Source: Myxococcota bacterium (GTDB lineage: Bacteria > Myxococcota_A > UBA9160 > SZUA-336). From it: 64,000 nt of DNA. Each line of letters opens with the position of its first letter. Position 1 is the first letter of the stretch. Shown here one piece after another: positions 2,502 through 38,317 of this stretch. Under the pieces are notes generated by a model. That model was not told the DNA's origin. It saw only the letters and a program-made list of their open reading frames with translations, and did not search any database. The DNA lies in NCBI GenBank assembly GCA_965247115.1, contig CBDFGR010000003.1, positions 1,312,001-1,376,000 on the forward strand. The letters are read 5' to 3'. A program made the translations under genes and the position numbers.

Positions 2502-3436
2502 GCGCCCTCCTCCACGACCGGGCCGAGCAGGGTCAGCGTGCCGAGGTTGCCGTCGAGCTCCGCGGCGATCCCGAACCCGAGCGCGCGATTGTCCGCGACG
2601 TGTCCGATCGGCAGATCCTCGACGATGGGCCCTTCGACCTCGGCCTTCAGGATCTCGGCAACCACGTGTCGTGCCGTAACGTCAGGGTAGCGCTCGGAGG
2701 CGCAGTCCACGAGCCGCCCGATGGCAACGCCACGCGCCGCCCGAAGCTTGCCCGCCTCCCGTAGCTGCACCAGCGTCCGGTCGATCGCGTAGGGCTCCTC
2801 TCCGACCTCCTCGAGGAACAGGATGGCGCCGCGCGTGTCCACCTCCCACGGCGTACCCAGGCTTCCCGCGAGCAACGTCAGGTTTCCGCCGACCAGGCGC
2901 CCCCGACTCCGACCGCCTTTGAGCCGGGAACCCTCGAGCGGGACCAGCCACCCCGCGCCCCCGCGCAGCAGCTCGAGCAGGCGCTCCTGAGCCTCGGGCG
3001 TCGTGTCATTGCGCTCCAGCATGGGACCGTGGACTCCGGCGAGCCGCGCGCAGCGAGCGAGCCAGAGCAAGAGCAACGTGGCGTCGCTAAAGCCCACGAA
3101 GAGCTTCCGCGTGCGGCGGATCTCCCTGGGGTCCAGCCGCGCGAGCAACCTACCCAGTCCGTAGCCTCCCCGTGCCAGGATGATCGCGCGGACCTCCGGC
3201 GCGCGGACCAGCTCGAGCAGGTCCGCAAGCCGCTCCTCGTCGCCACCGGCGAGGAAGCCGGAGCGATCGCGCAGATGTGTCGCGCAGCGCGTCTTGTAGC
3301 CCGCCCGGTCGAGCCAGCTCAGTCCAGCCTCCAGCGCGGTAGCGTTCACGGGACCGGACGGCGCGCAGATGCCGACGGTGGAGCCTGGCGGGAGCGCGAG
3401 CGGCTTCGTGAGCTTGCGCCCGAGCCCGAGCCGCAT
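2498..3436 (-). CDS. ldcA: LD-carboxypeptidase (peptidase S66)
   Basis: ARGGYG, GFSD (catalytic Ser), GGNL, LEEVGE and IGH motifs; next to mpl. Confidence 0.9.
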   Translation of the reverse strand: MRLGLGRKLTKPLALPPGSTVGICAPSGPVNATALEAGLSWLDRAGYKTRCATHLRDRSGFLAGGDEERLADLLELVRAPEVRAIILARGGYGLGRLLARLDPREIRRTRKLFVGFSDATLLLLWLARCARLAGVHGPMLERNDTTPEAQERLLELLRGGAGWLVPLEGSRLKGGRSRGRLVGGNLTLLAGSLGTPWEVDTRGAILFLEEVGEEPYAIDRTLVQLREAGKLRAARGVAIGRLVDCASERYPDVTARHVVAEILKAEVEGPIVEDLPIGHVADNRALGFGIAAELDGNLGTLTLLGPVVEEGA

Positions 3437-6712: not shown

Positions 6713-8758
6713 CTACGCGATCAGGGGGGCGATCACTACGCTGACGACGGCCATGAGCTTGATCAGGATGTTGAGGGACGGGCCGGCCGTGTCCTTGAAC
6801 GGATCGCCGACCGTGTCGCCGACCACCGCCGCCTTGTGGGCGTCGGTGCCCTTTCCGCCATGCGCGCCCCCCTCGATGGTCTTCTTGGCGTTGTCCCAGG
6901 CCCCGCCGGCATTCGCCATGAAGAGCGCCATCAGGACGCCCGTGACCGTGACTCCAGCCAGCACACCGCCGAGCGCCTGCTTGCCGATCAGGAAGCCGAC
7001 CAGGACCGGCACACTGACGGCCAGCAGTCCTGGCGCCAGCATGCGACGGATCGAGGCCGCGGTAGAGATCGCAACACAGTTTGCGTACTCCGCCTTGGCA
7101 GTCCCCTCGAGCAGACCCGGGATCTCGCGGAACTGGCGCCGCACCTCCTCGATCATCTCGCCTGCTGCGACTCCGACCGCCTTCATTGCAAGGGAGCTGA
7201 AGACGAAGGGCACCATGCCCCCCACGAACACGCCCGCCATCACGATCGGGTTCAACAGATCGAGGGACTCCAGGTTGGATTGGGTCCGGAAGGCGCTGAA
7301 CAGCGCCAGCGCCGTGAGTGCCGCAGAGCCGATCGCGAAGCCCTTGCCGATGGCCGCCGTCGTGTTCCCGACGGAATCGAGCAGGTCTGTGCGTTCGCGA
7401 ACCTCCGGCCCCGTCCCACTCATCTCCGCGATCCCGCCGGCGTTGTCCGCAATCGGGCCGTAGGCATCGACGGCGAGCTGGATCCCCACCGTGCAGAGCA
7501 TGCCCAGTCCACCCATGGCGATGCCGTAGAGGCCGCACAGGCTGTGTGCGCCTACCATGGCCAGCGCGATCACCAGGACCGGAATCACCGTCGATCGCAT
7601 CCCGACGGCGAGGCCCGAGATGATGTTCGTTGCCTCTCCCGTGAGGGAGGCAGCGGCGATCTCGTTCACCGCGGCGGTATCCGTCGCGGTGTAGTGCTCC
7701 GTGGCAAGCGCGATAACCACGCCGCCAACCAGACCCAGCACCATGGCGCCGAGGATGTTCCAGACCGGTCCGTCTCCCACGACCTGGACGATGGTGACGT
7801 AGGCCACGGGGATCATCACGGCCACCGAGCCGAACACACCCAGGTTCAGGGCGGTCTGCGGGTTCCCTCCTTCCGACGTCCGCACGAAGAAGGTCGACAC
7901 GATCGAGACGACAATCCCCACGCCGGCCAGTGCGAGCGGCAGGATCACGAAGTTGACCTGGCCCTCCGTCGCGACGTCGATCGAGATCGCGTAGGGGACG
8001 CCCAGAATCATGGCCCCGATGATGGCGCCAACGTAGGACTCGAACAGATCGGCGCCCATGCCGGCCACGTCACCCACGTTGTCGCCGACGCAGTCCGCGA
8101 TCGCTGCGGGGTTGCGTGGGTCGTCCTCCGGAAGTCCCGCCTCGACCTTGCCCACCAGGTCCGCACCGACGTCGGCGGCCTTGGTGTAAATCCCGCCCCC
8201 CACACGCGCGAACAGCGCGATAGAGCTGGCTCCGAGGCTGAAGCCCGACATCAGGGTGAGCACCTGACCGGTCACATCGCTAACGCCCCAGCCGTGGAGG
8301 CGCGTGTACAGCAGCAGCAGCGCGGAGAGCCCGAGAACGCCGAGCCCCACGACGCTCATCCCCATGACCACGCCGCCGCTGAAGGCGACCCTGAGGCCAT
8401 CGCTGAGCGAGTTCCGCGCCGCCGCAGTGGTCCGCACGTTCGCCAGCGTGGCCACGCGCATGCCGAAGTACCCGGCAAGCCCGGAGCAGACCGCCCCCAC
8501 GACGAACGACAGGGCGATCAGCTGCGTGCCTCGAGTCCAGTAGCCGCCGACGAGCAGCACGGCCACCGAGAGGATGAAGATCGAGAGCACCCGGTACTGC
8601 TTGCCCAGAAATGCCATGGCGCCTTCCTGGATGTAGCCGGCGATCTCGGCCATTCGATCCGTGCCGACCTCCGCTCGCGCGACCGAGCGCGCCTTTATCC
8701 ACGCGAAGATCAGGGCGAGAACTCCCGCCCCGGCCGCCGCCACCACCAAGCTACTCAC
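6713..8758 (-). CDS. hppA: Membrane-bound ion-translocating pyrophosphatase (K+-dependent signature, likely Na+-pumping)
   Basis: [45 protein letters not shown] (Ala is the K+-dependent signature) and [10 protein letters not shown]. Confidence 0.96.
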
Positions 8759-22765: not shown

Positions 22766-24535
22766 ATGAGGGAGGGAGCACCGGGCAGGGCAGCGGCGGT
22801 TCCGCTGCTGCTCGAGATCGCGCGTGCCCGACGGGCCCGCGAGTTCTACGCGCCGGGCCACCCGACCCTCTCCGAGGCCCTCAAGCGGCTCGCCCGCGTC
22901 TGGCGGATGGCGCTCTCCGAGGTGGACGAGCTCGAGCTACAGCTCGAGCGCGGCTGCTTCCAGCTGATGGGAGTGTCCGAGCTGCGCGGCCCCGGCATCG
23001 ATGAGCTGGCTGCCGAGCTCGAGACGCGAGGCATCCGACGGCTGCGGATCGGGTCCAGCGTCGAGCCCGCCGAGATGGACGCGCTGATCGATGCGCTCGT
23101 TCACGACTTCTCGGGAGCCGACGAGCTCGAGCAGCTCCTGGCTCGCTCCGACGTCCAGAACATCACGACGACGGATCTCGTGTTCGGCGAGCTACCGCAA
23201 CGCGGCAAGCGCACTCTGCACTTCGAGCGGGAGGAAGGAGAGACGCGACTCCTCCCGGTGGTCTCGCGGGAGCCCGACAGCACTGCGGAGGACGGAACAC
23301 CGACGGCGGTGGACTGTCTGGGTGGCGAGGCGCCCACACCAGTCGTCATGCAGTCGGATGATCGAAAGACCGACCAGGACGACCGGAAGACCGGAGAAGA
23401 CGCTCCGAAGACCGGAGAAGACGCTCCGAAGATCGGAGAAGACGCTCCGAAGATCGGAGAAGACGCTCCGAAGATCGGAGAAGACGCTCCGAAGACCGGA
23501 GAAGGGACTTCGAAGCTCTTGAGCCAGCTTGCCGAGCTGGAAGGCTGCGATGCGCTCGAGCCGTACCGCGAGCTCGCCGACCGGATCCGTGACTTCTCTG
23601 AAGCGCTGCTCGAGGCGCGGAGCTTCTTCGACGCCTATCGCGCCGCCCTGGTGTTCACCCGACACTCGAGCGATCGGCGCGGACACCCGGAGGAGATCTG
23701 CGCGGAGGCAAGGCTCCGCCTGCAGAGCCTGCTGGAGTCTGACGACTTCCTCGGCTTCGTGATCGAGCTCGCCTCGAGCGGGGAGGGCCTCACGTGCGTG
23801 CAGGCGACACAGGTCCTCCTGGCCTGCGGCGAGGCCGTCGTGCCGCGACTGCTCGACGCGCACTTCACGGCGGACGACGAGACGAGCAAGCGCACAGCCT
23901 CGATCCTGATCGCGATGGGTGACGCCGCGCTGCAGGTGATCGTGGCGGAGCTCGACTCGCCCACGCTCGAGCGGGCAAGGCGCGCGGCTCAGCTGCTCGG
24001 CGACCTGCAGCACCCGCGCGCGGTCGAGTCACTCAGCGCCGCGCTCCAGAACGCCGAGAATCCGAGCATCCGACCCAAGGTCGCGCGCGCGCTCGTTCAC
24101 ATCGGGAGCGAGGAAGCGATCGATACGTTGATCGAGGCGCTTCAAGACGACACGGAGCGTGCGGAGCTCGCAGCCCGCTGCCTGGGAGAGTCGCCCGAGC
24201 CGCGGGCCTGCGCCGCCCTGATCGAAGCAATGGAGGAGAGCAGCGGCCGCCAGGAATCTGTGCGCCGCGAGGCGATTCGCAGCCTCGGCAAGCTGGGTGG
24301 AGACGAGGCTCTCGCCGCTCTGCGCTCGCTCCTCGAGCAGGGCTCCCTCCTGCACCGAAGGCGCATACGTCCGCTGCGCATCGCAGCGGCGCAGGCCATT
24401 GCGCGCATCGGCAACAGCTCGGCCCGAGAAGCCCTCGAGAGAAACTCGCGCCACGGCGATACTGCGGTGCGAAAAGCCTGCGGTACCGCGCTCGAGCGTC
24501 TCGGCCCGGCGAGCGACTCCAGCAGCCCCGGCTGA
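22766..24535 (+). CDS. HEAT-repeat protein with an N-terminal FYAPGHP-type domain
   Basis: C-terminal AAQLLGDL..RAVESL, VARALVHIG, AIRSLGKLG and AAAQAIARIG repeats. Confidence 0.8.
   Translation: MREGAPGRAAAVPLLLEIARARRAREFYAPGHPTLSEALKRLARVWRMALSEVDELELQLERGCFQLMGVSELRGPGIDELAAELETRGIRRLRIGSSVEPAEMDALIDALVHDFSGADELEQLLARSDVQNITTTDLVFGELPQRGKRTLHFEREEGETRLLPVVSREPDSTAEDGTPTAVDCLGGEAPTPVVMQSDDRKTDQDDRKTGEDAPKTGEDAPKIGEDAPKIGEDAPKIGEDAPKTGEGTSKLLSQLAELEGCDALEPYRELADRIRDFSEALLEARSFFDAYRAALVFTRHSSDRRGHPEEICAEARLRLQSLLESDDFLGFVIELASSGEGLTCVQATQVLLACGEAVVPRLLDAHFTADDETSKRTASILIAMGDAALQVIVAELDSPTLERARRAAQLLGDLQHPRAVESLSAALQNAENPSIRPKVARALVHIGSEEAIDTLIEALQDDTERAELAARCLGESPEPRACAALIEAMEESSGRQESVRREAIRSLGKLGGDEALAALRSLLEQGSLLHRRRIRPLRIAAAQAIARIGNSSAREALERNSRHGDTAVRKACGTALERLGPASDSSSPG
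23386..23504 (+). repeat. 21-bp tandem repeat (about 5.5 copies) encoding K(T/I)GEDAP
   Basis: GAAGA(C/T)CGGAGAAGACGCTCC repeated. Confidence 0.93.
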
Positions 24536-25985: not shown

Positions 25986-26630
25986 CTACGACGGTATGGC
26001 GAGCTGCTGGAACGCTGCGCCCGGCGGTCCTTCCGCCAGGCGCTGCCGGATCTCTCCGGCGCAGCCCTCCGGACTCCGCAGGGACGTATCCACCTCCAGA
26101 TCATAGACCCCGGGCTTGTGAACCTCCTCCTGCCAGAGGAGAACGGGTGGGGGAAACGGTTCGTCGGGCGAACCAACCACATACCTTCCGGGCGGGCTTT
26201 CGTTGCGACGCTTCATGATCACCTCGATCGGGCAGCGTACGCCGACGAACAGGACGGGCAGTCCCGTGAGCCGTCGCGCACAATCACTCAACAGGCCAGG
26301 GTGGATGGCGCCGTGGTGACCGCCCTCCGTAACGACGTTGAGACCCAACCTACTGTGCGCCACGATCGACTCGTACAGTGCTGCGTAGAACGTTGGCACG
26401 AGCCGCTCCAGCTCCGGATTGTCGCCGCCGAAACCTGGTCCCGGGCCGGGCCGGAGACCGATCCCGGGCTGATATCGCACCGGTGTGACGCCTCTCGCGA
26501 ACACGTCCACGCCCAGGTTCATCCAGACGCCCTCGAACGTATCTTGGATGACCCTGACGATGCTGGACTTCCCGGCTCGAGGTGCGCCGTTCAGGATCAC
26601 GATCTGGCCCGGTGCGGCCTGCTCTTCCAT
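25986..26630 (-). CDS. Chloramphenicol phosphotransferase-like P-loop kinase
   Basis: ILNGAPRAGKSS, LGVD, FVGVRCP and YDLEVDTS motifs. Confidence 0.85.
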   Translation of the reverse strand: MEEQAAPGQIVILNGAPRAGKSSIVRVIQDTFEGVWMNLGVDVFARGVTPVRYQPGIGLRPGPGPGFGGDNPELERLVPTFYAALYESIVAHSRLGLNVVTEGGHHGAIHPGLLSDCARRLTGLPVLFVGVRCPIEVIMKRRNESPPGRYVVGSPDEPFPPPVLLWQEEVHKPGVYDLEVDTSLRSPEGCAGEIRQRLAEGPPGAAFQQLAIPS

Positions 26631-26668
26631 GGATAATGCCTGCCCGGGCAAAGATCGTACTGCAAGGA

Positions 26669-26803: not shown

Positions 26804-27835
26804 CTATGTAGGCATTGCGACTTCGCGGAGGAGGCCCAGCGAGTCGAGAACGTTGCCGGCGCCGTTGGCGACGGCGGTGAAGGGGTCGTCGCCGCGGACG
26901 ATCGGGAGTTTGGTCTCGTTGCGGAGCAGCTGGTCGAAGTCGCGCAGGAGCGCGCAGCCGCCGACCAGGACGATGCCACGATCGACGATGTCGGCAGCTA
27001 GCTCCGGAGGTGTGCGCTCCAGGGTCTGCAGCACCGTGTCGACGATCTGGTGGATCGGCTCGGAGAGGGCTTCGCGGACCTCGTCGCTGGAGATCACGAT
27101 CATCTTCGGGATGCCGCCGACCAGATCGCGACCCTTGATCTCCATCGTCTTCACGGGACCATCGCCCGTGGCCGTTCCGATCGTGATCTTGATGATCTCC
27201 GCGCTGCGTTCGCCCACGAGCAAGTTGTGCTTGCGTTTCACGTACTGGATGATCGCCTCGTCGAGCTTGTCGCCCCCGACCCGAACGGAGCTCGAAGTCA
27301 CGATGCCGGCCAGGGAGATGACTGCAACGTCGGTCGTTCCCCCGCCCACGTCGATCACCATATTGCCCGTGGGTTGAACTACGTCCAGGCCCGCTCCGAT
27401 CGCGGCCGCCATCGGCTCTTCGATCAGGTAGACCTCGCGCGCGCCGGCCGAGGTGGCGGACTCGCGGACGGCTCTCTTCTCGACGGACGTGATACAGGGG
27501 GGCACGCAGATGACGATGCGGGGCCGCACGAGGCGGCGGCGGTTGTGCGCCTTCTGGATGAAGTAGCGCAGCATCGCCTCGGTAACCTCGAAGTCGGCAA
27601 TGACGCCATCCTTGATCGGACGAATGGCGGTGATGCTCCCAGGAGTGCGGCCGACCATCTCCTTGGCCTCGCTGCCGACCGCGAGCACTTTGCGCGAAAC
27701 TCCGTTCGCGATCGCCACGACTGATGGCTCGCTGCAGATGATCCCGCGTCCCCGTGCGTACACCAGAGTGTTTGCGGTGCCGAGATCGATGGCCAGGTCG
27801 TTGGATAGCAGTCCGGCGAGCCAGCTAAAGACCAT
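26804..27835 (-). CDS. mreB: Rod shape-determining actin MreB
   Basis: IDLGTANTLV, EPSVVA, IEEPMAAAIGAG, DVGGGTTD and TPPELAADI motifs. Confidence 0.97.
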   Translation of the reverse strand: MVFSWLAGLLSNDLAIDLGTANTLVYARGRGIICSEPSVVAIANGVSRKVLAVGSEAKEMVGRTPGSITAIRPIKDGVIADFEVTEAMLRYFIQKAHNRRRLVRPRIVICVPPCITSVEKRAVRESATSAGAREVYLIEEPMAAAIGAGLDVVQPTGNMVIDVGGGTTDVAVISLAGIVTSSSVRVGGDKLDEAIIQYVKRKHNLLVGERSAEIIKITIGTATGDGPVKTMEIKGRDLVGGIPKMIVISSDEVREALSEPIHQIVDTVLQTLERTPPELAADIVDRGIVLVGGCALLRDFDQLLRNETKLPIVRGDDPFTAVANGAGNVLDSLGLLREVAMPT

Positions 27836-27918
27836 ATTTTCGCTCCGGATTCAAAGAGAAGGGACCCCCAATTGCATCGGCAACACAGCCTGGAACTGGA
27901 GCAACTCGGCAGCAGGTT

Positions 27919-28263
27919 CTAGCGGCCGCTCTCGATGGGCCGGCTCAAGAGGTCCAGGACGGCCTCCACGCCCACCCGTGCCTCGCCCACGCGCTTCTCG
28001 TGGGCGGTAATCGTGGCGCGCTGGTTCGCGATCGTCGCCTCGCGATCAACGACCGCCTGCTTGAGCGCTCGCGCCTCAGTCTCGAGCACGTCAATGCGGT
28101 TGCCGAGCTGCAAGCGACTCCACACGAGCAGCGCGAGCGCGACGCTGAGGGCCAGGGCGAGCAACACCGTCATGCGCGACAGCCTGGGCTCAGGGCCTCG
28201 CTCGGAGCGCTCCGCGTCAGCTGGCGGCGGAACAGTGCGGAGCCGCGGCTCAGGCTCGGACAC
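27919..28263 (-). CDS. Small single-TM coiled-coil hypothetical protein
   Basis: Hydrophobic VLLALALSVALALLVW followed by a heptad-like helix; starts 5 nt after the pafA stop. Confidence 0.65.
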   Translation of the reverse strand: MSEPEPRLRTVPPPADAERSERGPEPRLSRMTVLLALALSVALALLVWSRLQLGNRIDVLETEARALKQAVVDREATIANQRATITAHEKRVGEARVGVEAVLDLLSRPIESGR

Positions 28264-28268
28264 GGAGC

Positions 28269-29675
28269 TCAGCTCTGGATGACCAGCTTCGAGAGCGAGG
28301 TCCGGCGCAGGTTCGTCTTCTGGATCGTGCGCACGAGCTCGGTCACCTTCTCGGTGTCGGTCTCGAACGGATTGTTGCAGATGACGCGAACGTTCAAGAG
28401 GTTGCCAAGGCGGATGTTCGACCAGTCGAGGTCGTACTGGATGTTGTTCTGCCGTGCCAGCTTGATGAAGTCGCCGCGCATGCGCGCGCGCGTGTCCTGC
28501 GGAGGCTCAGTCTTGGCCTTCTCGATCTCCGAGTCCGAGAACATCCGATCGACGATACCTTTCCGCTCCAGCAAGTAGAAGAAGCCACGGTCCTGGCGGA
28601 TGTCGTGGTACTGCAGGTCCAGCATGAAGACGCGCGGGTCGTGCCAGGAGATCTCGTGGCGATCCACGTACTGGCGCAGCAGCTTGCGCTTGATCACCCA
28701 GTCGATCTTCCGGTCGAGCTCGTCGGGATCGCGCTCCAGGCTCGTGAGCACGGAATCCCACTCCACGACTCCCTCCTGTAGCTGATCGCTCACGGGGTAC
28801 TGCTCGATGTGCCGCTTTGCCATCTCGCAGTACTCGCGCTGGATCTCGATCGGCGAGTACTCCCGCCCGTTCTCGAGGCGCAGCTTCTTGCGGCACGTCG
28901 TGTCGTAGGAGATGTCCTTGATCGCCTTGACCGGGTGCCGGAGCGTGAAGTCCTTGGTAATGAAGCCGTCCTCGATCATCTGCAGGACGATCGCGCAGGT
29001 CGAGAGCTTCAGGAAGTTTGTGTACTCGGACATGTTCGAGTCGCCAACGATCACGTGCAGGCGTCGATACTTCTCGCGGTCCGCGTGCGGCTCGTCGCGG
29101 GTGTTGATGATCGAGCGGTCGTTCGTGGTGGTACCCGAGATCTTCTGATAGATGTGCTGTGCGCGCTGGCTGATGCAGTAGTGCACGCCGTCCTGCGTCT
29201 GAAACACCTTGCCGGCGCCGGAGAAGATCTGGCGCGTGACCAGGAACGGGATCAGCTGCTCGGCCAGGTAGTAGAAGTCCACGTCCCGATCGACCAGGTA
29301 GTTCTCGTGGCAGCCGTAGCTGTTTCCCACGAAGTCCGTGTTGTTCTTGAAGATCGAGAGCTTGCCGGGGACTCGCTCCTCGCGGATCTTCTCCTCGGCG
29401 TAGAGCTGCAGGTCCTCCAGGATGCGCTCGCCAGCGCGGTCGAAGATCACCAGGTCCTTCGGGCTCGCGCACTCCGGCGAGGCGTACTCGGGATGGCAGC
29501 CGGTGTCCTGGTAGAAGCGGGCACCGTTCTCGAGGAAGACGTTGAGGAAGTGCTCCGTCGTGATGAGCTTCTCGAACAGGAACCGGATCGCCTTCTCCAC
29601 CGGGAGCGTCTTACGCCCCTCGGGCGTGAAGATGATCCCGTACTCGGTCTCCAGTCCGTAGATTCTCTTCTGCAC
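28269..29675 (-). CDS. pafA: Pup-protein ligase
   Basis: (M)QKRIYGLETEYG, FLENGARFY, HPEYASPEC, KNNTDFVGNSYGCHENY, SQRA, INTRDEPHAD and RRLHVIVGDSN motifs; lacks the Dop loop. Confidence 0.93.
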   Translation of the reverse strand: MQKRIYGLETEYGIIFTPEGRKTLPVEKAIRFLFEKLITTEHFLNVFLENGARFYQDTGCHPEYASPECASPKDLVIFDRAGERILEDLQLYAEEKIREERVPGKLSIFKNNTDFVGNSYGCHENYLVDRDVDFYYLAEQLIPFLVTRQIFSGAGKVFQTQDGVHYCISQRAQHIYQKISGTTTNDRSIINTRDEPHADREKYRRLHVIVGDSNMSEYTNFLKLSTCAIVLQMIEDGFITKDFTLRHPVKAIKDISYDTTCRKKLRLENGREYSPIEIQREYCEMAKRHIEQYPVSDQLQEGVVEWDSVLTSLERDPDELDRKIDWVIKRKLLRQYVDRHEISWHDPRVFMLDLQYHDIRQDRGFFYLLERKGIVDRMFSDSEIEKAKTEPPQDTRARMRGDFIKLARQNNIQYDLDWSNIRLGNLLNVRVICNNPFETDTEKVTELVRTIQKTNLRRTSLSKLVIQS

Positions 29676-29682
29676 CGCTACC

Positions 29683-30372
29683 CTACCTACCGACGAGTTC
29701 CTTGATCTCGGGCTCTGCCAAACGTCTGAACTTACGGCCTTCGCGCGAGCGCTCCAGGATTGCAATCTCCAGCACTTGCTCGTCCAGGTCCGCCTCCTCC
29801 GTTCCGTCTCCCGCGGAGGAGAGCGCCTTGCGTCCCAGCACGACCGCCTCGTCCAGACTCAGGGTAGCTTTCCAGCCGTTCTTGAGCACGCCCATGAGCT
29901 CGTCCGGGTCGCCGCCGATCGACACGAAGTGGTCGTGGTCCGTCAGGCTGCCGTCATACAGGATGCGGTAGAACGACACGGAATCGTCGCCGATCTCGGA
30001 AACGAGGATCTCGACCTCGAGGGACTTCATCTCGCGCGTGAAGATCGACCCGAGGACAGTCGAGTACTCGTTCGCCAGGCTCTTTCCCGACACGTCTTCC
30101 CGGGAGTAGGAATAGCCCTGCATGTCCGCGTAGCGAATCCCCGCCTTCCGCAGGTTCTCGTACTCGTCCAGCTTCCCGACGCCCCCGAACGCGATGCGAT
30201 CGTAGATCTCGGCGATCTTGCGCAGGCCCGAGCTGCGGTTCTCCGCCAGCATGACGACTCCGCCCTCGTACTCGAGCGCGACCATCGGTCGGCCGCGGCT
30301 GATCCCCTTGCGCGCGTACTCGGCCTTCTCCTGGTAGTGCTGCTCCGGCGAGATGTAGAAGGGAGAACTCAC
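29683..30372 (-). CDS. prcA: 20S proteasome alpha subunit
   Basis: PFYISPEQ..KAEYARKGISRGR, KIAEIYDRI and GIRYADMQGYSYSREDV, as in actinobacterial PrcA. Confidence 0.96.
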   Translation of the reverse strand: MSSPFYISPEQHYQEKAEYARKGISRGRPMVALEYEGGVVMLAENRSSGLRKIAEIYDRIAFGGVGKLDEYENLRKAGIRYADMQGYSYSREDVSGKSLANEYSTVLGSIFTREMKSLEVEILVSEIGDDSVSFYRILYDGSLTDHDHFVSIGGDPDELMGVLKNGWKATLSLDEAVVLGRKALSSAGDGTEEADLDEQVLEIAILERSREGRKFRRLAEPEIKELVGR

Positions 30373-30375
30373 AAT

Positions 30376-31158
30376 CTAGGTCTCTCCCCGCCGCTCGATG
30401 ACCCGGTGGTAGCCGGCGAGAAGGGACTCCTCCGACACGTCTTCGACAGTGCCGTCCGTAACGAGCTTGCAGATCGGATAGATCTTGCGAACGATGTCGA
30501 AACCGCCGGTCGCCCGATCTTCGTCCGCTGCGTCCACGAGCGCCTCGACGGCCGCCTCGACAGCGTTCTCCACGGAGAAGTCGCGGTGGCGGAACGTCTT
30601 CTTCAGGCTGGAGCGAGCGTCTTTGCCGCCAGAGCCCGTCGCGTAGTAGTCCTCTTCGCTGTAGCGCCCGCCCGTGATGTCGAACTTGTAGATCCGACCA
30701 CGGCCCTTCTGGTGGTCGTAGCCACAGAAGAGCGGCATCACGACCAGGCCCTGCATCGCGGCCGGTAGGTTCTGCCGCAGCAGAAAGGAGAGCCGGTTCG
30801 CCTTTCCTTCGAAGGTCAGGGCCTTGTCCTCGAGCTTCTGGTAGTGCTCGAGCTCGAGACGGAACACCTTCATCATCTCGACCGCGGGGCCAGCCGCACC
30901 CGCGATGGCCATGAGACAGGTTTCGTCGATCTTGAACACCTTCTCGATGTCGCGCGCACCGACCTGGCTGCCTTCGGTCGCCAGGCGGTCGCCGGCCATC
31001 AGCACGCCATCCTCGTACACGAGCGACAGAACGGTCGTCGCCACGGGCAGCTCGAGTCCGGTCCAATCACCGCGATCAAAGTCTGGCAGCAGCGCCGGAT
31101 GATCGACCCGAAGGAACTCCAGAAAGCTCGAGCCTGAGTAGGTCTGGCCCTTGAACAC
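30376..31158 (-). CDS. prcB: 20S proteasome beta subunit with 40-aa propeptide
   Basis: SSFLEFL propeptide box; mature TTVLSL with Thr1, Asp17 and Lys33 correctly spaced; LELEHYQKLE, GSGG and DAADEDRATGG. Confidence 0.96.
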   Translation of the reverse strand: MFKGQTYSGSSFLEFLRVDHPALLPDFDRGDWTGLELPVATTVLSLVYEDGVLMAGDRLATEGSQVGARDIEKVFKIDETCLMAIAGAAGPAVEMMKVFRLELEHYQKLEDKALTFEGKANRLSFLLRQNLPAAMQGLVVMPLFCGYDHQKGRGRIYKFDITGGRYSEEDYYATGSGGKDARSSLKKTFRHRDFSVENAVEAAVEALVDAADEDRATGGFDIVRKIYPICKLVTDGTVEDVSEESLLAGYHRVIERRGET

Positions 31159-31160
31159 TC

Positions 31161-31367
31161 CTACTCGCCCCCTCTCTGCACGTAGTTCTTAACGAACTCT
31201 TCCGCGTTCTCCTCGAGGACCTCGTCGATCTCGTCCATCAAGGAGTCCATCTCTTCTTTGAGCTCCTCGCCCTTCTTGGCGATCTTCTTCTGCCCGCCTG
31301 AGTCGGCGGACTCGGAGGCATCGGAACCGTCGCCTCCCTGCCGCTGCTTCTGGGTCTGATCGCTCAT
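31161..31367 (-). CDS. pup: Prokaryotic ubiquitin-like protein Pup (ends GGE)
   Basis: Disordered N-terminus followed by DSLMDEIDEVLEENAEEFVKNYVQRGGE; lies between dop and prcB. Confidence 0.96.
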   Translation of the reverse strand: MSDQTQKQRQGGDGSDASESADSGGQKKIAKKGEELKEEMDSLMDEIDEVLEENAEEFVKNYVQRGGE

Positions 31368-31377
31368 GCTTCTCTCC

Positions 31378-32862
31378 TCACGCCGTCAGATTGCGAACGA
31401 GGTCCTCCGCCGAGGGGCTGGCATCCAGAAGCTCCTCCACGTGCGACTTCGTTCCCTTCAACGGCTCGTTCATCAGGATCCGCTTGATGACCTCGTCTCC
31501 CACGTTGAAGGAGATCGAGTCCCAATTGACTCCGAACACCGATCCAGGATAGCGCCGAATGCACTCGCCCCGAAAGAAGGCTCGCGTGTCGTCCGGAGGC
31601 GCGTGGATGGCCCGTTCGACGGCCTCGTCGTCAATGATCCGGTCGACATCTCCGCGCCGCTCGAGCAGATGGTAGAGCCCCTTGTCCGGGCGCACGTCGT
31701 GGTACTGCAGGTCGAGCATCGCCACTCGGGGGCTGTTCCAGTCGAGCTCGTGCTTGTTCACGTACTCGCTGATCAGCTTGTGCTTGATCACCCAGTCCAC
31801 TTCGCGATCGCACTGGAACGGATCCTCGGCGATCCTCTCGATCAGAGATTCCCAGCGGGTCAGCACGTCCTTGGTGATGGGATCGATCTCGCGCGAGCTA
31901 AAGTATCGCAGCGCCATCTCCAGGTACTCCTGCTGCACCTGGGCGGCGGTCAGGCGTCCGCCCCGATCCATGGGGTACTCGCGCCTACAGTCGATGTCGT
32001 GCGAGATCTCCTTGACGACTTTCACGTGGTCGCACATGGAGACGTTCCTGTCGATCGCGCCGTCCTCGATCAAGCCCAGCACGATCGCTGTGACCCCCAA
32101 GCGGACGTAGATCGAGACCTCGGAAAGGTTGGAGTCCCCGATAATCACGTGGAGCCTGCGGTACTTCTCCCGGTCGGCATGCGGCTCGTCGCGGGTGTTG
32201 ATGATGGGACGCTTGACCATCGTGTCGAGGGCCACCTCGGTCTCGAAGAAGTCCGCACGCTGGGCGATCTGGTACTCGCACGGAGCCGCGCGATTCTCGC
32301 TCCCCACCTTGCCAGCCCCGCAGAAGATCTGCCTCGTCACGAGGAACGGAGTCAGGTACTCGACGATGTCCTTGAACGGGGTGCGCCGGCTGATCAGGTA
32401 GTTCTCGTGATTGCCGTAGGAGTTGCCCTTACGATCGCTATTGTTCTTGTGGATCAGCAGCGTCTGGCCCGGTGGCAGGAGTGCCGTAGCGGCCCTGCGA
32501 GCCGTCTCCATGGTGCGTTCCCCCGCCCGCTCGTAGGCCAGCAGGTCGAGGAGGTTCGTCACCTCAGGCGTCGAGTACTCGGGGTGCGCATGGTCAACGT
32601 AGAAGCGCGCGCCGTTCTTCAGTGTCTTGTTACGGGCGATGTTCTCATGCTGGTTCGGCGTGTACTTCTCGCCCTCGACGTGGAAACCTCGCGCGTCTGC
32701 TAGAGGATTCTCCTGGTCGTAGTCCCACAGGATCTGCGCATCCTTGTTGTCCTGGTAGGCGTTGACGAGAAGTACGCAGCTGGAGATCGGATCGAAGTCC
32801 GGGTCTCCCTGAACGGTGATCCCGTACTCGATCTCGGTGCCAAATACACTCGGAGGCGGCAT
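31378..32862 (-). CDS. dop: Depupylase/deamidase Dop
   Basis: GTEIEYGI, Dop loop WDYDQENPLADARGF, NGARFYVDHAHPEYSTPE, KNNSDRKGNSYG and NWDS motifs. Confidence 0.95.
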   Translation of the reverse strand: MPPPSVFGTEIEYGITVQGDPDFDPISSCVLLVNAYQDNKDAQILWDYDQENPLADARGFHVEGEKYTPNQHENIARNKTLKNGARFYVDHAHPEYSTPEVTNLLDLLAYERAGERTMETARRAATALLPPGQTLLIHKNNSDRKGNSYGNHENYLISRRTPFKDIVEYLTPFLVTRQIFCGAGKVGSENRAAPCEYQIAQRADFFETEVALDTMVKRPIINTRDEPHADREKYRRLHVIIGDSNLSEVSIYVRLGVTAIVLGLIEDGAIDRNVSMCDHVKVVKEISHDIDCRREYPMDRGGRLTAAQVQQEYLEMALRYFSSREIDPITKDVLTRWESLIERIAEDPFQCDREVDWVIKHKLISEYVNKHELDWNSPRVAMLDLQYHDVRPDKGLYHLLERRGDVDRIIDDEAVERAIHAPPDDTRAFFRGECIRRYPGSVFGVNWDSISFNVGDEVIKRILMNEPLKGTKSHVEELLDASPSAEDLVRNLTA

Positions 32863-32889
32863 GCCCTGGAAACCGACCCTTCCCGTCCC

Positions 32890-34710
32890 CTAGAGATACT
32901 GCCCGGAGCCGCCCACGTTCTCGATTGCCTGCTCCTTGCGGCTGATCCCTGTGATCAGAGTCCGAACGTTGATGATCCGCTCGCCCTTGCGACCCGAGAT
33001 TCGCGCCCAGTCGTCCGGATTCGTGGTGTTGGGAAGATCCTCGTTCTCCTTGAACTCCTCGCGAACCGAGTCGAGCATGTCGTCGCGACGGATCCCGCCT
33101 TCACCGGCGGTGATCTGACGCTTCACGGCCTTCTTCTTGGCGCGATCGACGATGTTGCGGAGCATGGCGCCGCTGGAGAAGTCCTTGAAGTAGAAGATCT
33201 CGCGCTCACCCTTGGCGTAGGTCACCTCCAGGAACTTGTTCTCCTCACTCTCCGCGTACATGGTCTCGATCACTTCGTCGATGATCCCTGCTACCGCGCG
33301 GGCAGGGTCGCCGCCGTACTTGGCGAGCTCCTCCGCGTTGAGCGGCAGGTCCGCAGTGAGATACTTGCGGAAGATCTCGCTCGCGCCCGGCCCATCGGGT
33401 CGGTTCACCTTGACTTTGAGGTCCAGCCGTCCCGGCCGAAGCACCGCGGGATCGATCAGATCCTGGCGGTTCGACGCGCCGATCACGATCACGTTCTTCA
33501 GCGACTCGACCCCGTCGATCTCCGACAGGAACTGTGCGACGACGGTCGCCTCCATGTCCGACGAGATCCCCGAGCCTCGCATGCGGAACAGCGAGTCCAT
33601 CTCGTCGAAGAAGATCACGACCGGAACGTCCTCTTCCGCCTTCTCGCGGGCGTTCTTGAAGACCTCGCGGATCTTGTGCTCCGTCTCCCCGACGTACTTG
33701 TTCAGGAGCTCCGGGCCCTTCACGTTCAGGAAGTAGCTCTTGGGATCGACCCCGCGCGTCTCGGCGATCCGCTTCGCGAGCTCGTTCGCAACCGCCTTTC
33801 CAATCATGGTCTTCCCGCAGCCCGGGGGGCCGTAGAGGAGGATCCCCTTTGGCGGGGCCAGGTTGTACTTCTTGAACTCGTCCGTATAGAGATACGGCAG
33901 CTCGATGGCGTCCCGCAGGACCTCGATCTGGTCGCCGAGCCCGCCGATATCCTCGTAGTTGACGTCCGGTACCTCCTCGAGCACCACCTGGTCGACGGTA
34001 GACTTCGGGAGCTTCTCCACGCCAAAGCCGTTGCGCGGATTGACGAGGACGTTGTCGCCAGCCTTGAGCTTCTCTCGCCGCATCGGCAGCGAGAGCGTGA
34101 TGACGCGCTCTTCGTCGGCGTGGCCCAGCACAATGAGACGACCGTCTCCCAGTACCTCCGAGACCTGCATGACTTCGCCCCGAGGGTCGAAGTCCGTCGA
34201 GTCCACGATGTTGAAGGCCTCGTTCAGCACGATCAGCTGGCCTTCCATCAGATCCTCGACGCGGACGTTCGGATGCGCGTTCACGCGCATCATCCTGCCG
34301 TCGACGTTGATCTCTACGGTTCCATCCTTGTTGGAACGCTCGTACACGCCGTAGGTATTCGGGGGCGCGCAAAGCTTGTCGACCTCTTGCTTCAGAAGAT
34401 CGATCTGCTGCTTCGCGTCCTGTAGCGCGTTCACGAGCTTCTCGTTCTGCCGCTCCGCGTCGTAGAGCTGGTGACGGGCGCGGTCGTAGCGCTGTCGCTG
34501 TAGCTCGTACTCCATGAGAAAGCGCTCGATGCGTCTGACCAGGTCCCGAGCCTCGGGACCCAGGAAACGCAGCGCGTCACGCAGGCTCTCGATATCAGTC
34601 ATCTCTTCCTGCGCGCTCGCGTCGGATTCCTGCTCTCGTGAACCCGGCGATGAGATTCGCTTCATCACGTCTCGAACGAAGCCTCTTCTCCCTGAACCTG
34701 ACTCGCTCAT
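32890..34710 (-). CDS. arc: Proteasomal AAA ATPase ARC/Mpa
   Basis: N-terminal coiled coil and PP linker, OB domains, GPPGCGKT, KGPELLNKYVGE, FFDEMD, ENEDLPNTTNPDDWARISG and C-terminal GQYL. Confidence 0.97.
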   Translation of the reverse strand: MSESGSGRRGFVRDVMKRISSPGSREQESDASAQEEMTDIESLRDALRFLGPEARDLVRRIERFLMEYELQRQRYDRARHQLYDAERQNEKLVNALQDAKQQIDLLKQEVDKLCAPPNTYGVYERSNKDGTVEINVDGRMMRVNAHPNVRVEDLMEGQLIVLNEAFNIVDSTDFDPRGEVMQVSEVLGDGRLIVLGHADEERVITLSLPMRREKLKAGDNVLVNPRNGFGVEKLPKSTVDQVVLEEVPDVNYEDIGGLGDQIEVLRDAIELPYLYTDEFKKYNLAPPKGILLYGPPGCGKTMIGKAVANELAKRIAETRGVDPKSYFLNVKGPELLNKYVGETEHKIREVFKNAREKAEEDVPVVIFFDEMDSLFRMRGSGISSDMEATVVAQFLSEIDGVESLKNVIVIGASNRQDLIDPAVLRPGRLDLKVKVNRPDGPGASEIFRKYLTADLPLNAEELAKYGGDPARAVAGIIDEVIETMYAESEENKFLEVTYAKGEREIFYFKDFSSGAMLRNIVDRAKKKAVKRQITAGEGGIRRDDMLDSVREEFKENEDLPNTTNPDDWARISGRKGERIINVRTLITGISRKEQAIENVGGSGQYL

Positions 34711-34904
34711 GTACCTTCCTCAGCATTGGCCGATATCCGCTGCGCGACACGATCTTTCGCGCCAGCTTTCGCCGTAAACTGGATGCTTCTGCAATCGACG
34801 TACCAAAGAGAGCTGGCCTCTGTGGGGAAGGGAATCGGTACCTCTCGTGCAGACACGAGGAGAGGCTCGGCACCCGGGCGTCCCCTCGCTCCACCCCGAT
34901 CCGA

Positions 34905-35078
34905 GCAAAACAATAAGGAAAAAACGGGAGTTTGCCCGCTCCCAGTCACCTGGATTGCGCATTCGGGGCCGCCCTGGCGGAGCGTACACTCCCGTGCAGC
35001 GGCACGAGGTCTCTCTTGCGCCGCCAGGGACGTTGGGCTCGAATCGGAAATCATGTGTAAAAACACAAGCTTAGACCA
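34905..35078 (-). ncRNA. Putative structured leader or sRNA upstream of the Pup-proteasome operon
   Basis: Lies between a sigma70 promoter and a terminator-like hairpin; contains a long imperfect stem (CGUCCCUGGCGG/CCGCCAGGGCG, CUCGUGC/GCACGGG). Confidence 0.45.
34915..34944 (-). terminator. Intrinsic terminator-like hairpin in the arc leader
   Basis: UGGGAG-CGGGCAAA-CUCCCG followed by UUUUUU; the stem is short. Confidence 0.5.
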
Positions 35079-35084
35079 CTGATG

Positions 35085-35113
35085 AGATTAACTGGAGATG
35101 TCTGGCGTGTCAA
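35085..35113 (-). promoter_or_regulatory. sigma70-type promoter ~375 nt upstream of arc
   Basis: TTGACA-N17-TAATCT on the minus strand. Confidence 0.72.
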
Positions 35114-35391
35114 CGGACCACACCCGGCAGCTCCCGACAAAAGCCTTTGATTCTGCGCAGTTTCCCGACTGCAAGGGGCCTCGATCCGAGCCACAGGGCG
35201 CCCGCGCCTTTTCGCGCCACGCCGACGGATCATTGACGGCGATGCGTCGAGTATCCGCCACTATCGTCGCGACCGTTGCTTGCAGGAGAGGTGCGCACGT
35301 CGCTGCCCCACTCGCTGTTCTTGGACTCGTTTGACGAAGGCCGGGGCTGCAGGGATTCACGGGAGTTGCACACGTGTGAACGGGGACGAGC

Positions 35392-36063
35392 TCAGCGCAG
35401 GTCGATGATCTCGGTTCCCTCGGGAACCCTGATGTCGAAGCTCGAGTCATCGACACCCACGTTCTCCTCGATCGAAGCGAAGCGAATACTCGTCCGGTTC
35501 TTGAACAGGTCCACCAGCACGGACTCGCGCAGCTGGTAGGTCTCGCGATTGACCCACAGCTCGATGAACTCGAAGCTGGATTCCTGGCGTGGATCCAGCC
35601 GGAGACCGAGCTCCGCCCGCTCGTCCGCGTCGATCGCGACCGCCGTGAAGAGCTCGCGCAACACGCCCTCACCGAGCAGGAAGGACAGCGCCGTCGGCGA
35701 CACGGTGCCCTCTGCCAGACCCGCGATCTGCAGCTGCTCATCCTGCGGGCTATAGATGCGCAGCGTCTGGGCGTTCAAGACGATCACGCGCTCGTCCGGA
35801 GGCGAGTACGCCCAGCGAATCAGGCCCGGGCGCTTCATCGTGACGCGGCCGTCCGAGCGGCTCTCGCTGCCGAGAGCTGCGGTGTAGCTCGTCTGCACGA
35901 AGCCGGCAGAGAGATCGGTGATGCCGTCGTAGCGCGCCTGGATAGCATCGAGCGCGGCTGTGGTCGGCTCTTCCGTGGCGCCGTTCCCGAGCAGTCCCAG
36001 GACGAGCAGCAGAGCGAGCCGCCTAGCGGGTGTCTTCCTCCGTGGGACGCACGAAGATGTCAC
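35392..36063 (-). CDS. lolA: Outer-membrane lipoprotein carrier LolA (start uncertain)
   Basis: LSAGFVQ, KRPGLIRWAY..P and F...PEGTEIID motifs; ftsK-lolA synteny. Confidence 0.85.
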   Translation of the reverse strand: MTSSCVPRRKTPARRLALLLVLGLLGNGATEEPTTAALDAIQARYDGITDLSAGFVQTSYTAALGSESRSDGRVTMKRPGLIRWAYSPPDERVIVLNAQTLRIYSPQDEQLQIAGLAEGTVSPTALSFLLGEGVLRELFTAVAIDADERAELGLRLDPRQESSFEFIELWVNRETYQLRESVLVDLFKNRTSIRFASIEENVGVDDSSFDIRVPEGTEIIDLR

Positions 36064-38317
36064 GTGCCTTCGTTCCTTCCTGCGGGCCGACGATTCCCTC
36101 CGCCTCCATGTGCTCCACGATGCGCGCCGAGCGGTTGTAGCCGATCTTGAGCTTGCGCTGAATGAAGGAGATCGAGGCGATCCTGTGCGTGGCGACGATA
36201 TCGACAGCAGCGTCGAACAGCTCGTCGATCTCGTCGCCCCGTTCCTCTCGCTTCTCACTCTCCTCCTTGAGACGAATCAGGGACGGATCGAATTCTGGCG
36301 AGGCCTGCTCGCGCAGATAGTCGCAGACGGCCGCGATCTCCTTCTCGGAAACGTAAGGCCCGTGAATACGCTCCAGCTTCGACGTGCCCGGCGGCACATA
36401 GAGCATGTCGCCCATTCCGAGCAGTCTCTCCGCGCCGTTCGAGTCGAGGATGGTCCGGGAGTCCGTGCGCGAGCTCACCTGGAAGGAAATGCGCGATGGA
36501 AAATTCGCCTTGATGATCCCCGTGAGGACGTCAACAGACGGGCGTTGGGTGGCCAGGACCAGGTGGATCCCCGCCGCGCGTGCCATCTGCGCCAGGCGGA
36601 TCAGCGACTCTTCCACATCACGCGAGGCAACGATCATCAGATCCGCCAGCTCGTCGACGACGACCGCGATATAGGGCATGGCGTGGGGAACGATGTCGTC
36701 GTCGGCCTCCAGGCGCGCCTGAGCCCGCTCGCGCGCGACGTGCTTGTTGTACTGCTGGATGTTCCGCACGCCAAGCTCGGCCATGAGCGCGTACCGTTCC
36801 TCCATCTTGTGGACGATGCCGAGCAGCGCGGCTGCGGCCCGCTTGGGGTTGGTCACCACCTCTGCAATGAGGTGGGGAATCCCCTGGAAGGGGGCAAACT
36901 CGAGCATCTTGGGATCGATCAGGAGCAGCTTGAGCTCGTCGGGGCGCGCGCGAAACACCAGGCTACAGAGCAGCGCCGACAGAAAGACGGACTTTCCGGT
37001 ACCGGTGGCGCCGGCGATCAGCAGGTGCGGCATGGTCGCGAGGTCCGTCGTGACCGGGCTGCCAAAGATGTCCTTGCCGAGTGCCAGCTCGAGCCTCGAC
37101 TCCGATTCCTGGTAGCTCGGATGGCCCATCACGTCGCGCAGCATGACAACGTCGCGCTCCGCATTCGGGACCTCGATCCCGACGACGCTCTTGCCCGGAA
37201 TTGGTGCCACGATGCGTACGGCCATGGCGCGTAGCGCCAGCGCAAGGTCGTCGGCCAGGTTCGTGATTCGGGAGACCTTGATGCCGGGCGCGGGCTCGAA
37301 CTCGTACATCGTGATCACAGGTCCGGGATGGACCTTGACCACGCGCCCCAGCACTTGAAAGTCTGCCAGCTTCTTCTCGAGGATTCGCGAGTTCTTGAGC
37401 AGGGCCTCTCGATCGAAGTTCGTGCTCGCATCCGGGCCCAGTGCGAGCAGGTCGAGATCCGGCAGCTTGTACGGTCCGAGTGCGCCGGCTTCGAAAGGAA
37501 GCGCCTCTTGCCGCGGCGCCGTCGGCCTCGTCACCCGGTGCTCGACCACTTCTGGCTCGCCAGCAGCTACCGCGCGGCGGGGGAGCACGCGGCGTGCTGT
37601 GAGCCCAGATTCGGGCTCGCCGCTCTCCCCCGCTGCCAGGATGGCACGCTCGGCTCGCTCCTCGGCATAGCGCTCGAGCCGCAGGCGGGCCCGGGCCAGG
37701 CCGACACGCCAGCGCTGAGCCAGCTCCCTCGAGAAGCTGCGCAGAATTCGTTGCGCTCGGAGCAGCGTGTCGCGTGCGGAGCCGCCCGTCGCGATGAGCA
37801 GGCTCGAGAGCAGCGTGATCGAGAGCAGCAGCGTGGCACCCGGCAGATACACCACGCTCCGGAACGCGTCGACGGTCGCGGCACCGAACGAGCCTCCGAG
37901 CCCATCCGGAAGATCTGTTGGCAGCAGCCGCTGCATCGCGTCGAGGCTCGCAGCGACGCTGATCCAGAAGACGCTCCACGCCACAATGGGAACCCAGCGC
38001 GGCCGTACCGGCAGGCCCCGCAGGTAGCGGAGAGCGACCACCAGCGCGGCCACGGGAAGCCCGTGCGACGCCCAGCCCAAGCTTCCTGCGAGGCCGTACG
38101 CGAGAAAGGCGCCGACCGGACCGCAGAGGTTCTCGACTGGCCGACCGAGTCCCCAGAGCGGATCCGCCGAGCTGTAGCTCGCGAGTGCGACCTCGACCAG
38201 GAGTGCGCAAGCGAGCAGGCCCAGCGCCACGACCTCCGCTTCCACGCGCCCCGGCGTCCGCGGCTCTCGGCCGTAGTGACCTCTCTTCGCCCCGGACTTC
38301 TTCGCCTGCCTAGCCAA
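36023..38317 (-). CDS. ftsK: DNA translocase FtsK (4TM N-terminus)
   Basis: PGPVITMYE, MPHLLIAGATGTGKS, VDELADL, ATQRPSVDV and gamma-domain QRKLKIGYNRSAR. Confidence 0.97.
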   Translation of the reverse strand: MARQAKKSGAKRGHYGREPRTPGRVEAEVVALGLLACALLVEVALASYSSADPLWGLGRPVENLCGPVGAFLAYGLAGSLGWASHGLPVAALVVALRYLRGLPVRPRWVPIVAWSVFWISVAASLDAMQRLLPTDLPDGLGGSFGAATVDAFRSVVYLPGATLLLSITLLSSLLIATGGSARDTLLRAQRILRSFSRELAQRWRVGLARARLRLERYAEERAERAILAAGESGEPESGLTARRVLPRRAVAAGEPEVVEHRVTRPTAPRQEALPFEAGALGPYKLPDLDLLALGPDASTNFDREALLKNSRILEKKLADFQVLGRVVKVHPGPVITMYEFEPAPGIKVSRITNLADDLALALRAMAVRIVAPIPGKSVVGIEVPNAERDVVMLRDVMGHPSYQESESRLELALGKDIFGSPVTTDLATMPHLLIAGATGTGKSVFLSALLCSLVFRARPDELKLLLIDPKMLEFAPFQGIPHLIAEVVTNPKRAAAALLGIVHKMEERYALMAELGVRNIQQYNKHVARERAQARLEADDDIVPHAMPYIAVVVDELADLMIVASRDVEESLIRLAQMARAAGIHLVLATQRPSVDVLTGIIKANFPSRISFQVSSRTDSRTILDSNGAERLLGMGDMLYVPPGTSKLERIHGPYVSEKEIAAVCDYLREQASPEFDPSLIRLKEESEKREERGDEIDELFDAAVDIVATHRIASISFIQRKLKIGYNRSARIVEHMEAEGIVGPQEGTKARDIFVRPTEEDTR

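Follow-up and report, generated by a model that had tools for sequence, protein, structure and literature searches.

The DNA stretch analysed here, in the following called the window, comprises 64,000 nucleotides of a Myxococcota genome (contig CBDFGR010000003.1, positions 1,312,001 to 1,376,000) and harbours the genes of a Pup-proteasome system in the order arc-dop-pup-prcB-prcA-pafA. All six open reading frames (ORFs) lie on the minus strand, the intergenic gaps from arc to pafA measure 27, 10, 2, 3 and 7 nt, and no stop or frameshift interrupts any of these genes in the window (Table 1). A preliminary description of this DNA had proposed six co-oriented, tightly spaced genes with intact catalytic and docking motifs. 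Five of the six proteins exceed the cut-offs of their NCBIfam profiles and PafA falls marginally below, and all the motifs are present: the GQYL tail of ARC, Thr1, Asp17 and Lys33 of PrcB, GLETE in PafA and GTEIE in Dop. The open frame of pafA begins at 29765 and overlaps prcA; judged from the sequence, the likely start is the GTG at 29675, which agrees with the start in relatives.

Table 1. Features of the Pup-proteasome locus and its flanks. Positions are those of the window; profile scores are followed by the NCBIfam cut-off.
Feature	Description	Position	Strand	Basis
arc/mpa	proteasomal AAA+ ATPase, 606 aa	34710-32890	-	TIGR03689 729 bits (cut-off 505); Mpa E 1e-195
dop	depupylase/deamidase, 494 aa, with Dop-loop	32862-31378	-	TIGR03688 564 bits (cut-off 492); alignment to 4b0r
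pup	Pup, 68 aa, C-terminal YVQRGGE	31367-31161	-	PF05639; TIGR03687 62 bits (cut-off 41)
prcB	20S beta subunit, 260 aa, 40-residue propeptide, Thr41 = Thr1	31158-30376	-	TIGR03690 265 bits (cut-off 192)
prcA	20S alpha subunit, 229 aa	30372-29683	-	TIGR03691 271 bits (cut-off 139)
pafA	Pup ligase, 468 aa from GTG	29675-28269	-	profile score, alignment, model
sigma-54-type promoter (predicted)	TGGTACGTCGATTGCA, GG-N10-GC	34805-34790	-	79 nt before arc start codon; predicted transcript start near 34779
orf114	candidate seventh gene	28263-27919	-	recurs in 47/78 loci; no family assigned
lolA	upstream flank, start approximate	36060-35392	-	PF03548; synteny
ftsK	upstream flank, start approximate	38359-36023	-	NF007615 E 4e-152, under cut-off; synteny
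mreB	downstream flank	27835-26804	-	TIGR00904 498 bits; synteny

The host genome (5.17 Mb in 3 contigs, 98% complete) belongs to a diderm, Myxococcota-like organism, as had been suggested. An organism label is attached to 11 of the 120 best AlaS relatives, namely 8 Myxococcota, 1 Deltaproteobacteria, 1 Proteobacteria and 1 'bacterium', with no Actinomycetota or Nitrospirota. The window also encodes the proteins named for this host in the preliminary description, BamD (YfiO), LolA, Lgt, a PilT-like type II/IV secretion ATPase and a TIGR02266 protein. Of the 80 loci with the best PafA matches 68 are labelled Myxococcota, Myxococcales, Myxococcaceae or deltaproteobacterial, including the families UBA6930 and UBA4427. 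UBA6930 is placed in the class Vahlivitia, formerly UBA9160, of Myxococcota_A (10.64898/2026.07.10.737566, available in part), and the host probably belongs to this class, hereafter called the class. The 8 spirochaete labels among the 80 loci were taken as errors because these loci share the gene context of the class. Records labelled spirochaete, Geobacter or Gammaproteobacteria show this context with PafA proteins 78-85% identical to that of the window, so that their labels are probably wrong.

The class comprises 225 genomes in 13 families, 11 of which were sampled. A Pup ligase (PF03136) was found in 148 of 151 class genomes, in 102 of the 104 good-quality ones and in all 11 families drawn. 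In comparison with the other classes of the phylum the boundary is sharp: the bacterial 20S beta subunit exceeds the cut-off in 37/38 class genomes versus 0/163 others, and the Pup ligase is present in 76/78 versus 11/323, the latter being weaker matches (E 1e-43 to 1e-82) and mostly single genes. In the set of 80 PafA loci, 54 of 56 with enough DNA have all six genes and 53 of 53 have lolA upstream of arc; 49 of 61 loci have mreB downstream. Because kin are not independent, these counts show one old presence rather than many events. The Pup-proteasome operon thus belongs to the core of the class as a whole and is not the oddity of a single genome. The synteny expected in relatives was found, with the same borders in dozens of genomes. 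An old, domesticated acquisition had been proposed as well; the domestication holds, as does the age (class-wide presence, fixed synteny and a GC content at third codon positions, GC3, like that of housekeeping genes), while the nearest relatives are other diderm phyla with this operon, so that no donor is indicated and deep vertical descent may account for the operon as well.

ARC carries the domains PF17758, PF16450 and PF00004, that is a coiled coil, two OB domains and an AAA domain, and aligns with Mpa through the final residue. Counting the window, its tail reads GQYL in 61 of 64 class rows and GQYV in the other three. An N-terminal extension contains a RRGFVRDVMKRI motif which is common to the ARCs of Tectomicrobia and Moduliflexota. 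Dop has the D-H-A-H motif (YVDHAHPE) and a Dop-loop that aligns with 4b0r. The pup gene of the window encodes the sole Pup over cut-off in the genome; among 69 parsed class rows (window counted) the C-terminus is RGGE in 49 and RGGQ in 20. A UBact-type modifier was considered and is unsupported, TIGR03687 being the single NCBIfam profile that matched Pup (E up to 5). NCBIfam presumably includes a UBact model.

Mature beta chains begin, in the alignment, at residue 41 of PrcB, and Asp17 and Lys33 are in place. A PAC2-family protein is encoded at G000:C3:2298329-2298979 (+) of the host genome, and 48 of 61 class genomes have one; this family is a proposed proteasome assembly chaperone. A profile search for Bpa/PafE gave no match in the genome, but was silent in the controls too and is therefore uninformative. 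HslU and HslV, both over cut-off, are also encoded in the host genome beside the 20S proteasome (2453-4299 (-) of locus L236, contig C2). Actinobacteria are described as lacking HslUV (PMC3511204, available in part).

PafA retains E9, R53, D57, E63, H123, T183, T184 and R193, the Dop-loop being absent. In an alignment of 46 PafA rows E9, E11, R53, D57, E63, H123 and R193 are invariant and T183/T184 nearly so; D57 lies at the position of an Asp that has been changed to Asn in chain 4bjr. The model predicted from this alignment (pLDDT 88) has a TM score of 0.91 to 4bjr, the PafA-Pup structure. On the Dop profile the protein scores 414.5 against a cut-off of 492.3. According to PMC7947786 (available in part) T183, T184 and R193 matter for ligation and the alpha-loop of PafA is linked to target contact. 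The C-terminal KLVIQS is found in 80 of 81 rows, the lone exception being cut by a contig end, and residues 456-468 have a pLDDT below 50. A tail that is invariant and yet predicted with such low confidence shows the pattern of a docking motif and may serve as one.

Two irregular pafA arrangements were seen among the relatives. Two pafA copies, with 96% and 90% identity to that of the window, occur in one genome (loci L011, 10001-11407, and L001); the second is preceded by a prcA fragment only, without the operon, which could reflect duplication or a mixed bin. In locus L076 pafA (6921-8333) stands before mltG-ruvX-recA and the other five genes are absent in the 6.9 kb upstream, so that the operon is split in this genome.

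The region upstream of arc contains a sigma-54-type promoter sequence. The pattern is present in sense orientation in 55 of 56 class loci, never in antisense and never inside arc (0/56), while 0.27 would be expected by shuffling. Among held-out loci it occurs in all 15 class-like ones, versus one loose and no strict match in 31 outsiders, some of which repeat genomes already used in the analysis of the 56 loci. The genome encodes rpoN and has 14 strong matches to the sigma-54 activator domain. A stricter form of the pattern gave 29 sites in the genome, of which 24 are followed by an ORF; five of these ORFs comprise two P-II proteins, one AmtB, one protein with a pilin methylation motif and one unmatched. 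The lack of an adjacent pafBC had been pointed out before and extends to the whole genome: a WYL-domain protein (PF13280, the PafB/PafC type) was not found in the 98% complete assembly, while 7 of 14 controls gave matches. Together with the conserved site before arc this bears out the different regulation which had been suggested. That the substrates differ as well, likewise suggested there, is an inference. Scans for a sigma-70 promoter and for a terminator gave counts at chance (1 vs 1.2 and 4 vs 4.8). Beyond the sigma-54 site, farther from arc, the minus strand has a hairpin with a T run (34920-34944) and, noticed by eye, TTGACA-17 nt-TAATCT (35085-35113), which the promoter scan rejected; neither is above chance.

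In two metatranscriptome runs of one study we found contigs with 0-5 differences to parts of arc, dop/pup, prcA and pafA. They fit transcription of the operon without proving it, because the library may contain DNA. One of the contigs ends at 34773, 6 nt inside the predicted transcript start. Several flanking bins had no coverage in these runs, and this was not used as evidence for expression levels.

Taken together, the locus very probably encodes a working, canonical Pup-proteasome system, a vertically inherited core trait of the class that would be transcribed from the sigma-54 promoter. An enhancer-binding activator would open this promoter, so that six, perhaps seven, genes would be read as one unit; the promoter site is present in the sequence, its use and the activator are inferred. 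Because the Pup of the window already ends in Glu, no deamidation should be needed here, while Dop would deamidate the Gln-ended Pups of relatives, a chemistry taken from actinobacterial work. PafA would then join, with ATP, the terminal glutamate of Pup to lysines of cytoplasmic proteins. By homology, ARC would bind Pup, unfold the substrate and dock on the alpha ring by its GQYL tail, the beta ring would cut via Thr1, and Dop would remove and recycle Pup. A regulated protein turnover under nutrient limitation, probably of nitrogen, is a tentative physiological use in which we have somewhat less than even confidence. The link to nitrogen is plausible because a part that the Pup-proteasome system plays in nitrogen starvation of M. 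smegmatis is cited in PMC7947786. The occurrence of the promoter motif before two P-II genes and amtB fits this link as well. Against a use restricted to nitrogen stands the sigma-54 motif before the pilin gene, which means that motility genes are served too.

Several observations speak against this reading. The sigma-54 pattern was widened after a strict first version had matched just 9 of 56 loci, and a conserved upstream activator site is not evident by eye among the class loci. One RNA contig reaches 34896, about 117 nt beyond the predicted start. PafA falls marginally below the equivalog cut-off of TIGR03686 (548.6 vs 551.3) and has a Dop-type Pro at position 67, and its alpha-loop departs from actinobacterial PafA at the PafA-specific positions W176Y, E177Q, G178K, S181G, A182T and R185N, and also at S186D. 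Finally, PrcB of the window has Val-Ala before Thr1, that is Ala and no Gly at position -1. In the 61 parsed rows this residue is Gly in 58 and Ala in three, 10 further rows being partial or unparsed. Gly at -1 of the beta propeptide favours autoprocessing and its loss slows processing, although it is usual rather than defining.

The last point would also suit a system in which pupylation is mainly regulatory, serving tagging, unfolding and disassembly, and in which the coupling to the 20S core is weak or the core is in decay. Conservation is much higher in PafA than in the core subunits, with a median identity of 84% in the same loci compared to 51% for PrcA and 53% for PrcB, the PafA value being biased upward because the loci were picked by PafA; the presence of HslUV in the genome points in the same direction. 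However, a core in decay is hard to reconcile with a beta subunit over cut-off in nearly every sampled class genome, with a GQYL or GQYV tail in 64/64 ARC rows, with the wide retention of PAC2 and with genes free of stops and frameshifts in the window, and we regard this alternative as quite improbable. That an actinobacterial operon was joined into a diderm contig during assembly or binning has a negligible chance and was ruled out: although total GC over the operon is 0.61-0.63 compared to 0.64-0.70 elsewhere in the window, its GC3 of 0.84-0.92 matches housekeeping genes (0.82-0.89), dozens of genomes repeat the same borders, and the junctions mreB-pafA (27400-29322) and arc-lolA-ftsK (33585-38252) are spanned by contigs of a run from another study, with an identity of about 99%.

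The nearest relatives of the canonical system proposed here lie in other diderm phyla. The closest full-length PafA cluster outside the class (61%) belongs to Moduliflexota, and PafA identity is 59-64% to Moduliflexota and Tectomicrobia versus 44-51% to full-length actinobacterial copies. The loci of Tectomicrobia, Nitrospinota and Poribacteria were found via Dop searches. The operons of Tectomicrobia (Entotheonella), of a Nitrospinae genome, of Moduliflexota (KSB3) and of Poribacteria share the compact six-gene order and a Pup ending in QRGG[EQ], and they are nearest in the trees; one locus titled Nitrospinota has dop alone. These operons differ from that of the class by the absence of a strict sigma-54 site, by other flanking genes and by other PafA tails. 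The tails are conserved inside each diderm lineage and differ between lineages (KYGYLL, RFRFY/RFRLY, MIYSI, SNFFYR). We found no paper that describes the Tectomicrobia, Nitrospinota, Moduliflexota and Poribacteria operons as a group. In a Poribacteria genome there is a second, divergent 20S beta-like gene (G556:C1:3338394-3339077, 172 bits, under cut-off), far from the Pup operon.

In a tree of five genes (29 rows, quick search, LG+G4) the class forms a clade whose sister group comprises Tectomicrobia, Nitrospinota and Moduliflexota, and Poribacteria branch next. A second tree of PafA and Dop (41 rows, mixture model) was rooted by the duplication. In both paralogs of this tree the 7 actinobacterial rows are monophyletic (100/100 and 100/99), and the class joins the Tectomicrobia-Nitrospinota-Moduliflexota group with 100/99 for PafA and 85/87 for Dop, without a settled position for Poribacteria. 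The rows were hand-picked from fetched loci and comprise no Nitrospirota or UBact sequences. As the class lies outside the sampled Actinobacteria, it is unlikely that an actinobacterium was a recent donor. These trees do not separate a transfer between diderms from a deep descent followed by loss. A possible sister lineage in FastTree, P0004, turned out to be a lone PafA-like gene without an operon and was discarded. Lone PafA-like genes (44-46% identical; loci L139 and L140, 8001-9410), whose neighbourhood is free of pup, dop and proteasome genes, occur in records titled Deltaproteobacteria and Thermodesulfobacteriota.

Three origins of the operon can be considered. In the first, the ancestor of the class received the operon from the Tectomicrobia-Nitrospinota-Moduliflexota group by one old horizontal transfer, and a sigma-54 promoter was captured afterwards between lolA and mreB. 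The sharp class boundary given above (beta subunit 0/163, weak Pup ligase 11/323 in other classes), the sister relationship to just this diderm set and the class-specific promoter and gene context agree with it. However, the class is sister to the sampled donor group and not nested in it, so that no donor has been shown, and loss in the other classes would yield the same pattern; we see the case for this transfer as evenly balanced. According to the second, the ancestor of a large set of diderm phyla already had the operon, and most lineages descending from it, the other classes of this phylum among them, have lost it. The common six-gene order and QRGG[EQ] Pup, the separate branch of each sampled group next to monophyletic Actinobacteria and the ARC N-terminal motif common to the class, Tectomicrobia and Moduliflexota speak for such an ancestor. 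It requires many losses, though, and the diderm rows together are not a supported clade (Dop 54/6; in PafA two changes would be needed), which makes this origin rather unlikely, if still worth serious consideration. The third, a direct actinobacterial transfer, follows the printed model for non-actinobacterial copies, since PMC7947786 proposes an origin in Actinobacteria with transfer to Nitrospirae, Nitrospinae and Proteobacteria. A compact gene order is also found in some actinobacteria, and a stem or unsampled actinobacterial lineage could have given the genes to a diderm ancestor. As both PafA and Dop fall outside the 7 sampled actinobacterial rows and PafA is closer to Moduliflexota and Tectomicrobia, we consider it improbable.

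The actinobacterial system is known from Mpa/ARC with PrcA/PrcB of Mycobacterium and Rhodococcus, Dop of Acidothermus and PafA of Corynebacterium. It has the same six proteins and gene order, and shares the GQYL tail, Thr1/Asp17/Lys33, Asp57 of PafA and the Dop-loop pattern; it also provided the best PDB matches for every component searched. In contrast, the operon of the class resides in a diderm host with HslUV and no WYL protein found, it has a sigma-54 site, which none of the sampled actinobacterial loci has, its Pup ends in QRGGE instead of QKGG[EQ], and its PafA stands apart by an invariant tail of greater length and by changes in the alpha-loop. The Nitrospirota (Leptospirillum; PMC3511204) and UBact systems likewise combine a proteasome with a small-protein ligase in outer-membrane bacteria; unlike in UBact systems, the modifier here scores as Pup only.

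Outside Actinobacteria a few sporadic Pup-proteasome cases were noted in PMC3511204. Sporadic occurrences of Pup were reported for nitrospirae, verrucomicrobia, planctomycetes and the deltaproteobacterium Plesiocystis, where a proteasome is missing and the ligase is membrane-inserted (PMC2588565, available in part), and PMC7947786 mentions very sporadic draft-genome matches in Nitrospinae and Proteobacteria, for which transfer from Actinobacteria was proposed. The available part of 10.64898/2026.07.10.737566 mentions neither proteasome nor pup. We found no description of the system of this class in the literature, most subscription papers being beyond reach, so that a prior mention is possible; related proteins in public records have already been named Dop or PafA automatically. 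As a machine the system is canonical, an extension of a known one, and what makes it notable are the class-wide fixation, the sigma-54 site, the diderm-only nearest relatives and unexplained additions. A locus fixed in a whole class, with the nearest copies in four diderm lineages, reopens the question where pupylation originated in bacteria and if Actinobacteria were the source of its spread. The sigma-54 promoter makes the trigger findable, as one of about 14 activators should control the operon. Pupylation can be reconstituted in E. coli (PMC7947786) and the genes can be synthesised, so that no cultured host is needed to test which substrate rules a diderm PafA follows and what its tail does.

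Two of the additions deserve mention. The candidate seventh gene, orf114, is co-oriented with the operon and starts 5 nt past the pafA stop. Its product has an N-terminal PxLxxV motif, one hydrophobic segment and a heptad-like C-terminal part, and a protein of this anatomy follows pafA in 47 of 78 loci, some without a nearby mreB. No Pfam family was found in more than 3 of 32 members, Atlas matches stayed below 0.9, and 81 homologs are inconsistently named. An FtsL-like role would fit the anatomy, and orf114 may equally belong with the cell-shape genes.

The second addition is a third gene of the Pup-ligase family at G000:C3:2261684-2263483 (+), between fpg and gatC-gatA and about 35 kb from the PAC2 gene. 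It is present in 26 of 151 class genomes, all from two families. The protein has a hydrophobic helical insert at 157-214, about 55 hydrophobic residues just after the strand with the conserved His. It keeps GhExE, this His and R193, has Glu at the position of Asp57 and is without R53, T183/T184 and the EPHAD His, which indicates a remodelled active site. No second Pup over cut-off was found in the genome, and no ORF ending in G[G/T][E/Q] lies within about 1.5 kb of the third ligase in 20 loci. Its nearest Atlas clusters are mostly Myxococcota and Planctomycetota, and the long branch gave no tree placement. The membrane-inserted ligases of Plesiocystis and Rhodopirellula (PMC2588565) have a hydrophobic insert at a comparable position. 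They differ in having four helices instead of about 55 hydrophobic residues, and here a full proteasome is encoded in the same genome.

These additions could be joined into a far-reaching scheme, in which diderms have a pupylation branch of their own, equal in age to the actinobacterial one and rewired in this class into a signal-controlled, membrane-linked system. A sigma-54 activator would switch it on, the PafA tail and PxLxxV of orf114 would dock the ligase or the unfoldase at the inner membrane, and membrane proteins would be tagged or presented by the membrane-inserted paralog, which would use the single Pup of the operon. We regard this scheme as a long shot.

Two further genes of the neighbourhood were noted. 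A chloramphenicol phosphotransferase-like gene (25986-26651, minus strand, GC3 0.77) between mreB and mltG is present in 0 of 80 related loci and is probably a recent insertion. A HEAT-repeat protein with a short tandem peptide repeat of the GEDAPK type is encoded at 22766-24535 (+) and is syntenic with ruvX-mltG in many relatives.

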